Shown: one piece after another, positions 20,315 through 22,547 of the stretch
Numbering within the stretch: position 1 is the stretch's first letter
Layout of the letters: the number at the start of each line of letters is the position of its first letter
Origin: Trichodelitschia bisporula
Taxonomy: Eukaryota
Direction of reading: 5' to 3'
NCBI GenBank assembly: GCA_010356995.1
Contig: ML996706.1
Span: 439,789-503,788 of the forward strand
Length of the DNA: 64,000 bases
Made by a program: the position numbers and the translations under genes
Notes under the pieces: generated by a model
What the model was told of the DNA's origin: nothing
What the model saw: only the letters and a program-made list of their open reading frames with translations
Database searches by the model: none

Positions 20315-20734
20315 CTACTTTTGCGGCTCGGGCGATGCCTCGCGCTTCTCCAACGCCGCGTCGTAGTTGAGGATCAGGGCGCCTGTCGATGTTAGAATTC
20401 AATGACTTGTCCAGCAACAGCAGAGCTTGTTCTACCTCCAGCACCGGTGTACCCTTCCTTGCGCTTGACCTTCTCAAGCTTGGAGTCATAGGTGACAATT
20501 AGGGTACCTCGCCACTGTTAGCATGCCATATGCTTGTCGCCTATGATGACCGTACCTCCGGCCCCGGTGTAGCCCTCTTCAAGCTCCGGAGCAGCTTCAC
20601 GCTTGACCAATGCTGAATCTGTCAGTTTTGGAACGCCTGCACAAGATAGCACCTTCGGTACCCTTGTTGCTAGCCACTGGGGCAGCCGACGCAAACAAGG
20701 CGAAGAGAGCGACGAAAACCGAGGTGATCTTCAT
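20315..20734 (-). CDS. Small secreted Kex2-processed repeat precursor (putative dikaritin-type RiPP precursor), 4 exons, ~89-92 aa
   Basis: Introns at ~20613-20652 (or 20661), 20508-20555 and 20383-20435, each with a CTRAC branch point. Spliced product: MKITSVFVALFALFASAAPVASNK(GTE)ALVKR-EAAPELEEGYTGAGGTLIVTYDSKLEKVKR-KEGYTGAGGALILNYDAALEKR-EASPEPQK*. It has a signal peptide, three KR sites and two related cores. Intron 2 needs a GAG acceptor. Confidence 0.8.
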
Positions 20735-20865
20735 CTTGACAGTTTGAGAGTATGGGGATGGCCTGGGGTACAGAGCGGTATGGGTATGGGCTGCAGCGAG
20801 TCGACAAGAAGGAACTATACGATTGTGCTGTGGTTGCGTTGGAGGAGAACGGCAGGAGCTTCCGG

Positions 20866-20873
20866 TATTTATA
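20866..20873 (-). promoter_or_regulatory. TATA box (TATAAATA) upstream of the repeat precursor gene
   Basis: Consensus TATAAATA on the minus strand ~130 nt upstream of the ATG at 20734, inside the intergenic region shared with the UstYa gene. Confidence 0.5.
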
Positions 20874-21592
20874 ATGTCCCCCTTTGTTCTGTCAGATGAG
20901 TCTTCCCCACTTGCCCTCGGAACAACCTGCACGAATGCTCTTTCCTCGCCGTATCTTGCAGCAGTGTTCTTTCCCTGAGCGAAGACCCTTGTCCAAGGAC
21001 TTTGCTGTCGGGGCTTGTCGACAACCCTTCATCGTCTGGATGCAACACCAATGCTGGCTCAGCTTGCTCGTATACCTTGCTTCCTCCCAGGAAGAGCATC
21101 CCGGTCTTCAGGTGCTCATAAGCACTAACCTTCCAGCTTGCTGAAGTTCTGCAATGCAACAGTTCTCGACTGGCTTCTTATTCGACCGCTTCTTTTTCCG
21201 AACTCGATCTCCTCTCCCGGAATGCCTGCTCGCTTCCATTCGGGGAATTTGATAGGACAACTATATCATCGGATCATCGTCTACCGCCTTGCAAGACAGC
21301 GAAGCACGGTTACATTGCGGGGTTGTTGAGTGCCTTCACATGCGCCTAGAACTCGGTGAATCCAGAAGGGCGCTCCACTACTGGTGACCAGCTGCAGAAG
21401 TCCCCCAGCCGTCTCGTATCCTGACTGTCAGGTGGTCGTACAGGCACTCGGAGCTGATAGATCTGACATAGATATGCTTGCCCGCTTTCTGCGCCTAAGC
21501 ACTTCGAGAGGACATATCGCTTGCTCTGATACAAGCCACCTCGGCCTCTTCTGCTACTTTCTCGTCTGGTCGCCTCGTTGAATTCTCGCGTC

Positions 21593-22547
21593 ATGTCTAC
21601 TCCTCTTCACAAGTCTACGTACCGTCCCGTCAAGGACGACGAATTCAAAGACGACGACGATGAGGTGGATGATGGTTCTTCGCAGCAAAGCTCCTGGAGG
21701 TTCGGTCGCCAGCAGTCCGGTTCCTTCCGCTCCAAGCACTTCGCCATTGCGAATGTTGTACTTTTCGTCTCCTCTCTTGGGATGCTCGGTCTCTCCCTTT
21801 TTTTCATGGGCAAAGTCAGTGTGAGAAGCGTGAGCACCAGTAGCCCAGCTTGTGCACCAGAGGATACGTCCGTTTATTGTGGGTTACCGTGCTGCTCCTT
21901 TGAACGTCCGTTAACATGCTTAAGCCCCAATTTTCGACCGATTGCCCGTCAAGCAATTGCTCACAAAGGTCAATGGCACATTTTGGCCACAAAATCCGCC
22001 ATCTCTCCTCCAGCAAAGGCCAAGCCCGGAAGTGGATCGCGTGTGGGCTCGACTTACAACCACTTACGGTATTGTCATCACCGAGGACGAGGTGCGGAAG
22101 ATGGGGAAAGATCCTAAGAAAAGCTGGCCCTGGCCGAAAGTCGATGCTCCGGAAGGGTCTTATATGGGGATCATTGATATCTTCCACCAAGTCCACTGCC
22201 TCGACATGTTCCGGCGGACAGCCTTCCCCGAGTATTACGGCAATCTGCGTGAGATGTATAAGGACGAACTCTTCCCTTTTGACGACCACCTCTTGCACTG
22301 CCAGTACACGCTCGTCCAGGCCCTTACCTGCCATGCAGATCTTGAGGTCATCTTGTTCAACAAGATCAAGGGCCTTAGTGGGCCATTTGCGGACTTCAGT
22401 GTGGAGAAGAAGTGCCGGAATTTTGATGACATTATGGCTTGGCAGGATGCCCACCAAATCAAACCCCAAGGGAATGAGTACAAAGAGACACCTGATGGGA
22501 TTGAGCAGATTGACGGTACTGGGAATGCCTTTCCGTGGTCTGCTTGA
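21593..22547 (+). CDS. UstYa-like / DUF3328 oxidase (membrane-anchored)
   Basis: N-terminal TM helix (FAIANVVLFVSSLGMLGLSLFF). YSP motif across intron 21879-21924, then P-P-VD--W, FHQVHCLDMFRR, DHLLHCQYTLVQALTCHAD (two HxxHC motifs) and CRNFD. Confidence 0.92.

Follow-up and report, generated by a model that had tools for sequence, protein, structure and literature searches.

Can a short, intron-split repeat gene and a single oxidase gene by themselves make up a fungal peptide pathway? This question is raised by a locus of the dothideomycete Trichodelitschia bisporula, at positions 20315 to 22547 of a 64,000-nucleotide (nt) stretch of contig ML996706.1 (GenBank assembly GCA_010356995.1) that is referred to here as the window. 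In this locus, a small gene for a repeat precursor with Lys-Arg (KR) sites of the Kex2 type lies head-to-head with a gene for a UstYa (DUF3328) oxidase. A model that had seen only the letters and their open reading frames (ORFs) had proposed that the two genes form a minimal cluster for a cross-linked peptide; we call this the sequence-only reading. The locus is well supported as real, expressed and conserved as a pair, and we consider it probable that it is a minimal two-gene dikaritin/UstYa-type unit for a peptide made on the ribosome and modified after translation (a RiPP), the product of which we infer. The pair has the marks by which the dikaritin class is recognized in silico: a repeat precursor of the Kex2 type, predicted to be secreted, has as its neighbor a DUF3328 protein that carries two HxxHC motifs. 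The motifs lie in a protein that matches PF11807, and the precursor gene is clustered with the UstYa gene, 858 bp away, with linkage in three species, read in two of them from accession order. A DUF3328/UstYa protein with two HxxHC motifs is the class-defining dikaritin enzyme (PMC12048977).

The structure of the precursor gene was derived from frame joins and from the spliced contigs of two public transcript runs, X1 and X2, which come from one sample of one study and have no library type on record. We took both runs to be complementary DNA on the sole basis that their contigs are spliced. The features of the gene are as follows.

20315..20734, minus strand: precursor coding sequence, four exons, 89 amino acids (protein P0001, GenBank KAF2396658.1), from frame joins and spliced contigs
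20662..20734, minus strand: exon 1, with the start codon and a hydrophobic N-terminus that resembles a signal peptide (frame joins, hydropathy)
20613..20661, minus strand: intron 1, 49 nt, GT..AG; joint 20612>20662 in one X1 contig and three X2 contigs
20556..20612, minus strand: exon 2, KR site 1, EA/AP spacer and core 1 (first half) as far as its fourth Gly codon, which is split
20508..20555, minus strand: intron 2, 48 nt, GT..(g)AG acceptor; joint 20503>20552, cut +4, in one X1 contig at depth 25000
20436..20507, minus strand: exon 3, second half of core 1, KR site 2 and first half of core 2; 100% match to P0001
20383..20435, minus strand: intron 3, 53 nt, GT..AG; joint 20381>20435, cut +1, in two X1 contigs and eight X2 contigs
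20315..20382, minus strand: exon 4, second half of core 2, KR site 3, EA-SP-EP tail and stop codon
20485..20574, minus strand: core repeat 1, residues G38-D51, broken by intron 2
20360..20454, minus strand: core repeat 2, residues G62-D75, broken by intron 3

The coding sequence is 270 nt long and runs on the minus strand from the ATG at 20734 to the stop at 20315, and its spliced translation was identical, letter for letter, to the database protein P0001 of T. bisporula. All three of the short introns that the sequence-only reading had placed in this gene are skipped by contigs of X1 and X2, where the joints read CT..AC on the plus strand and hence GT..AG on the strand of the gene. The same reading had queried the GAG acceptor at 20508. 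The joint 20503>20552 has a 7-base ambiguity within which only the +4 placement gives GT..AG, so the gAG acceptor is used, as seen in a spliced X1 contig. Introns 2 and 3 interrupt the same Gly codon in both copies of the core, from which it follows that the duplicated unit included the intron. Three further X2 joints of low depth, which skip 50, 54 or 56 nt and have one to three letters in excess, have the look of erroneous versions of the precursor junctions.

The N-terminus of the predicted precursor is hydrophobic, with a maximum 12-residue hydropathy of 2.58 at residues 3-14 and a stretch of small residues thereafter (simple hydropathy check). Three KR sites, beginning at residues 28, 58 and 80, enclose two units with a common core block; this Gly-rich block occupies residues 38-51 and again residues 62-75. 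Leu is found at P4 in two of the three sites, and dipeptide spacers follow the first site (EA/AP) and the third (EA/SP/EP). As a Kex2-processed repeat protein (KEP), the precursor combines an N-terminal secretion signal, judged by the hydropathy check only, with KR-bounded repeats that number only two. UniRef names P0001 'Inhibitor I9 domain-containing protein', a label that looks like an annotation artefact and that Pfam and structure prediction do not reproduce. Read at face value, the name would make the 89-residue protein a small, folded and secreted peptidase inhibitor with an I9 (subtilisin-propeptide-like) domain, but we regard this as highly improbable, as the sequence is an internal repeat between KR sites and no confident fold was predicted. 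The AlphaFold 2 model of the precursor had a mean predicted local distance difference test (pLDDT) score of 48, a predicted template modeling score of 0.20 and 0 residues at or above 70, and the Atlas model a pLDDT of 0.33. The only matches in a Protein Data Bank (PDB) sequence search that came to the fore were to unrelated proteins, at E 0.78 (a Calx-beta-like stretch, not significant) and E 1.6. In a Pfam scan of the precursor at E <= 10, where HMMER filters discard most matches above about 0.1, Glyco_hydro_42M was the sole row (E 0.13), and neither I9 nor MF_alpha or MF_alpha_N was returned.

The partner gene lies on the opposite strand and consists of two exons.

21593..21878, plus strand: UstYa exon 1, encoding an acidic N-terminus and a single transmembrane helix (residues 47-73 of the model)
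21879..21924, plus strand: UstYa intron, 46 nt, GT..AG; joint 21878>21925, one contig per run
21925..22547, plus strand: UstYa exon 2, DUF3328 domain (Pfam PF11807) with HQVHC (residue 183) and HLLHC (residue 217)

Its product is a protein of 302 amino acids (P0006, KAF2396659.1), with the ATG at 21593 and a stop codon that ends at 22547. The sequence-only reading had described a double-HxxHC DUF3328 gene about 860 bp away in head-to-head orientation, and this description agrees with what we observed: an 858-bp gap, and the motifs HQVHC and HLLHC. The Pfam comparison that it had suggested gave a match of the oxidase to UstYa (PF11807) at E 1.7e-42, and both HxxHC motifs were invariant in 16/16 aligned UstYa homologues. 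An AlphaFold model of the protein had a mean pLDDT of 63, with block means of about 58-89 over the DUF3328 domain (residues about 120-290), and the long helix that it places at residues 47-73 is consistent with a predicted membrane anchor. Foldseek comparison of the model with the PDB gave nothing at E <= 0.001 (best 3.1), a PDB sequence search with the protein gave 0 matches, and a wide VIA-align search with the model reached a best Z of 4.1, with most rows aligning the transmembrane helix only.

Both the precursor gene and the UstYa gene are transcribed and spliced, as seen in the contigs of X1 and X2, and the real precursor/UstYa pair that the sequence-only reading had supposed is borne out at the transcript level. 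Two features lie between them.

20735..21592, no strand: divergent intergenic region, 858 bp (ATG-to-ATG gap), presumed shared promoter
20868..20873, minus strand: TATAAA box, 139 nt upstream of the precursor ATG

High contig depth over the precursor begins in the bin 20788-20871, at the TATAAA box. In X1 the contig depth was 25000 for the precursor, 3445.5 for UstYa and 149.5 for the spacer, depths that cannot rank genes and serve as a hint only. Each run holds one low-depth contig that spans the spacer from 20804 to 21564 (149.5 in X1, 1189.6 in X2); such coverage could stem from carried-over DNA or from weak transcription of the spacer itself.

Relatives of the precursor proved to be few. 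An exhaustive phmmer search over 1.84 billion representatives at E <= 0.001 gave five proteins: P0001 itself; P0002 of Thozetella sp. PMI_491 (124 amino acids, E 1.3e-9, KAH8894375.1); P0003; P0004 of Stipitochalara longipes (100 amino acids, E 4.6e-6, KAE9376385.1); and P0005, a relative of 64 amino acids (E 6.4e-4). P0003 (2079 amino acids, E 2.2e-6) was set aside as unrelated, with no GAGG or G[AS]GG and a leucine-rich-repeat-like start. Word-index searches with exon 3 (1 match among 13 candidates) and with P0001 (1 among 35) returned only P0001 itself. A hydrophobic N-terminus and two to three copies of the block G-Y-[TV]-G-A-G-G-x-x-I-[LIV]-N-[YR] were found in all four small proteins, and the units are KR-bounded in three of the four. 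Across the nine repeat units, the first Tyr and the Ile eight residues on were each present in 9/9, the Gly that precedes the Tyr and the Asn in 8/9 each, and the second Tyr in 6/9, with Arg in its place in all three Stipitochalara units; G-A-G-G was invariant in an unanchored alignment of the family. P0002 lacks the first half of its unit 1, at the very position of the intron in the window gene, which suggests a mis-called intron in the Thozetella gene model.

The oxidase is found in the same company. With UstYa exon 2 as query, 17 of 35 candidate proteins reached E <= 1e-10, six of them named and non-self, and both of the other named species with a precursor are represented: P0012 of Thozetella has 51% identity and P0013 of Stipitochalara 50%. 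In Trichodelitschia (KAF2396658/59), Thozetella (KAH8894375/76) and Stipitochalara (KAE9376385/86) the UstYa protein bears the accession number that directly follows that of the precursor, and the longest contig on record is equal in size for both members of each pair. Since KAF2396658 and KAF2396659 are adjacent genes in the window, we took consecutive numbers to mean adjacency in the other two species. By this measure precursor and UstYa gene adjoin in 3/3 named species with a precursor homologue, indirectly so in two of them, where the measure is accession order and longest-contig size rather than DNA; the conserved linkage for which the sequence-only reading had proposed a search is thus present in all three by consecutive accessions. 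These species span the Dothideomycetes, Sordariomycetes and Leotiomycetes. Such a pairing could also be inherited gene order with no functional link, in a repeat peptide family too small to judge, and with four known members and housekeeping genes as neighbors in the window this deserves weight; we nevertheless hold it to be quite unlikely, as the species are spread over three Pezizomycotina classes and the patchy distribution of the family suits an accessory unit over a core syntenic block; genes that diverge from a short upstream region in common would also be typical of co-regulated pairs.

In a tree of 17 UstYa rows built without an outgroup, the backbone was unresolved and only an Arthroderma/Talaromyces clade separated (100/99); we draw no orthology claim from it. 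The separate clade comprises P0015-P0019 and P0021 (Arthroderma, Talaromyces and related) and has a sequence signature of its own. UniRef names one of its proteins 'Cyclochlorotine biosynthesis protein O'.

A different explanation is that the precursor is an ordinary Kex2-processed repeat protein that releases linear, unmodified peptides of a signaling or pheromone-like kind, with the UstYa protein acting elsewhere or merely co-regulated. We consider this unlikely, though it is the strongest of the alternatives to a UstYa-modified product. About 78% of surveyed KEPs have no nearby DUF3328 gene (PMC7329392), and a long block conserved over classes would suit the ligand of a receptor. Like the yeast alpha-factor precursors, the window precursor has a secretory N-terminus and KR sites followed by EA/xP spacers, a layout of the alpha-factor type, and its Atlas feature score of 0.81 to an MF_alpha cluster falls below the bar set by that tool and is a lead only; unlike them, it has no Pfam MF_alpha or MF_alpha_N match. 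A Pfam scan of the surroundings, which covered 65 of the 133 ORFs in the window that reach 110 amino acids (the 68 omitted mostly overlap larger ORFs), found no tailoring or export gene within about 10 kb of the pair, as linear peptides would lead one to expect. Against linear peptides stands the observation that the same UstYa subgroup adjoins the precursor in 3/3 named species of three classes, and that the core motif does not accompany UstYa genes at large: six-frame matches to Y[VT]GAGG numbered two in the 64-kb window and 0 in 510 kb of metagenome sequence around 80 other UstYa loci. Those loci, kept in a scan with the UstYa alignment (80 of 190 relatives; 318 pattern matches; 23-40% identity), are paralogues only, none of them from the orthologue group, and were used solely as a negative control. 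The invariant Tyr and Ile are, moreover, the residue types that UstYa enzymes cross-link (PMC9233826).

The wider record on such genes also bears on a UstYa-modified product. In a survey of 1461 fungal strains, 7878 KEPs were counted, of which 1758 have a DUF3328 gene within 15 genes, most often in the adjacent position (PMC7329392). Tyr was enriched among the KEPs with such a neighbor (65.6% vs 38.2%), and pheromone KEP genes, three exceptions apart, were without accompanying DUF3328 genes (PMC7329392). The window precursor resembles the surveyed KEPs that have a DUF3328 neighbor in its signal peptide, its KR-flanked repeats and the adjacent DUF3328 gene (PMC7329392). The kind of locus is already known, in that Kex2-repeat genes beside DUF3328 genes have been catalogued in large numbers; the core family was not found in print, so far as the available portions of the literature go. 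Neither the motif strings nor the three genus names were found in the supplementary text of PMC7329392 and PMC6339444, the longer files of which may be incomplete in the form available. Where the motif strings did occur in literature text, the matches listed hold one string each, with titles that suggest nucleotide primers, and papers that name T. bisporula have, by title, no RiPP subject. The sequence-only reading had remarked that the core is unlike those known, and literature text searches likewise matched no characterized core to it.

Compared with characterized systems, the pair shows both clear likeness and clear difference. The asperipin cluster holds a reductase and a transporter gene as well as its oxidase. 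Ustiloxins and phomopsins, the dikaritins made from UstA and PhomA, likewise come from a secreted, Kex2-cut repeat precursor and a two-HxxHC DUF3328 enzyme (PMC12048977). Each of their cores has a conserved Tyr and Ile, the residue types that are cross-linked in dikaritins, and UstYa homologues join Tyr to Ile in both ustiloxins and phomopsins (PMC9233826). Dikaritin cores are 4-6 residues long, with Tyr and Ile two positions apart, whereas the block in the window has 12-14 residues and sets them eight apart over a Gly-rich hinge. UstA has 16 units vs two copies in the window precursor (PMC10540207), and the ustiloxin cluster contains two UstYa genes and the phomopsin cluster five, as opposed to one in the window locus (PMC7329392). 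Unlike dikaritin clusters, the window pair has no tyrosinase, methyltransferase, P450 or peptidase genes nearby among the scanned ORFs; of these, the accessory tailoring genes for tyrosinase, methyltransferase and peptidase, none of which was seen within about 10 kb, are common in dikaritin clusters and do not define them. Asperipin-2a is similar in its Tyr-rich repeat precursor and single DUF3328 oxidase (PMC7329392, PMC9233826); asperipin is bicyclic via two Tyr side chains (PMC9233826), and the window family keeps the second Tyr in 6/9 units.

Among the systems compared, the epichloecyclin cluster gigA-gigB-gigC-kexB of Epichloe festucae is the closest small-cluster analogue. It too is a small cluster, with four repeats, and the likeness is by description only (PMC10540207). 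Its Kex units are long 27-mers of which the core is only a part, its DUF3328 protein GigB is required for cyclization and, as contig depth hints for the window too, the precursor transcript is exceptionally abundant (PMC10540207). It differs in its core, in a SET methyltransferase and in having a kexin of its own (PMC10540207).

By analogy with alpha-factor and dikaritin processing, the precursor would enter the endoplasmic reticulum, and Kex2 in the Golgi would cleave it after each KR. Trimming of the Ste13 and Kex1 types would then strip off the basic tails along with the EA/xP dipeptides, the UstYa oxidase, anchored in the membrane, would introduce an oxidative cross-link between side chains, and the cross-linked product would finally be secreted. 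The sequence-only reading had taken the Tyr near each end of the core as the partners in the cross-link, a choice that fits the family less well, with the second Tyr in 6/9 units and the first Tyr and the Ile in 9/9. Since one species has another residue in place of the second Tyr, we rate a Tyr-Tyr link below a Tyr-Ile link. A tentative candidate is thus a bond that spans the flexible G-A-G-G hinge and ties the invariant Tyr to the Ile, likewise invariant, that lies eight residues downstream. Such a ring would use the same residue types as ustiloxins and phomopsins and would be far larger than theirs, and larger by a wide margin than that of any dikaritin compared here, as the available accounts describe them. 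It is somewhat more doubtful again that the two genes yield UstYa-modified peptides of a new class, in the form of either a 9-residue ring (Tyr-Ile, i to i+8) or a cross-linked peptide of 20-28 residues, in place of a toxin-like macrocycle of 4-6 residues.

Several observations weigh against a minimal dikaritin/UstYa-type unit. The processing steps and the cross-link are carried over from alpha-factor and dikaritin systems and would hold only so far as the analogy does. The precursor has two copies of the core vs four to sixteen in characterized precursors, and its conserved block, at 12-14 residues, far exceeds known cores in length. Of the scanned ORFs within about 10 kb, none was found to code for a peptidase, transporter, tyrosinase or methyltransferase. 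The Stipitochalara protein P0004 has no KR site, a single RR and Arg for the second Tyr; either its processing differs or its gene model, possibly mis-spliced, may be wrong. Zalerion, two Arthroderma and Talaromyces have a similar UstYa protein and no annotated precursor homologue in the exhaustive phmmer search. The adjacency in Thozetella and Stipitochalara was read from accession order and longest-contig size, not from DNA, and the transcript evidence is limited to a single sample of one study with no library type on record.

If the pair does make a peptide of such a new class, a block of 12-14 residues conserved over three classes and an apparently abundant transcript would suggest that a single oxidase matures a peptide with a conserved role outside the cell, as a signal or as a structural element. 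Most characterized clusters hold several oxidases and tailoring enzymes, which obscure the role of each UstYa protein. For UstYa chemistry the locus would then provide the simplest system of one enzyme and one substrate, and a conserved two-gene unit of one enzyme and a two-core substrate would offer a clean system for enzymology and heterologous expression. Short, intron-split precursors with two repeats do exist and are transcribed, and genome mining that relies on repeat counts may miss them.

Outside the pair, Pfam families identified the following genes in the window.

4722-9407: IML1/DEPDC5-like gene
11858-15703: FNIP-like gene
16896-17765, plus strand: intronless GST ORF (GST_N_2 and GST_C_2, E 3.4e-18), two genes away from the precursor, on the far side of the ATG18-like gene
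18263-19390, minus strand: PROPPIN/ATG18-like gene
24831-28205, plus strand: LCM, Kelch and Cupin_8 (PPM2/TYW4-like) gene
35516-37465, plus strand: Zn2Cys6 transcription factor
39528-41003, plus strand: FAD amine oxidase
52527-53465: DcpS gene
54791-57268: MCM6 gene
62092-63603, plus strand: major facilitator superfamily (MFS) transporter

The sequence-only reading had named ATG18 and PPM2/TYW4 as housekeeping neighbors, and the Pfam families agree; a dual-specificity phosphatase gene is also among the neighbors of the pair. The IML1/DEPDC5-like, FNIP-like, DcpS and MCM6 genes are likewise of the housekeeping kind, and large. The ustiloxin cluster contains a GST, and nothing links the GST of the window to the precursor/UstYa pair. 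The Zn2Cys6 factor, the FAD amine oxidase and the MFS transporter lie 13-40 kb off, with housekeeping genes between, and are probably unrelated to the pair. Searches gave no tRNA gene in the 64-kb window and, at 19000-25000, no tandem DNA repeat of any note. Taken as a whole, the window, with a GC of 0.541, is gene-dense core sequence of an ordinary sort and not a typical secondary-metabolite island.

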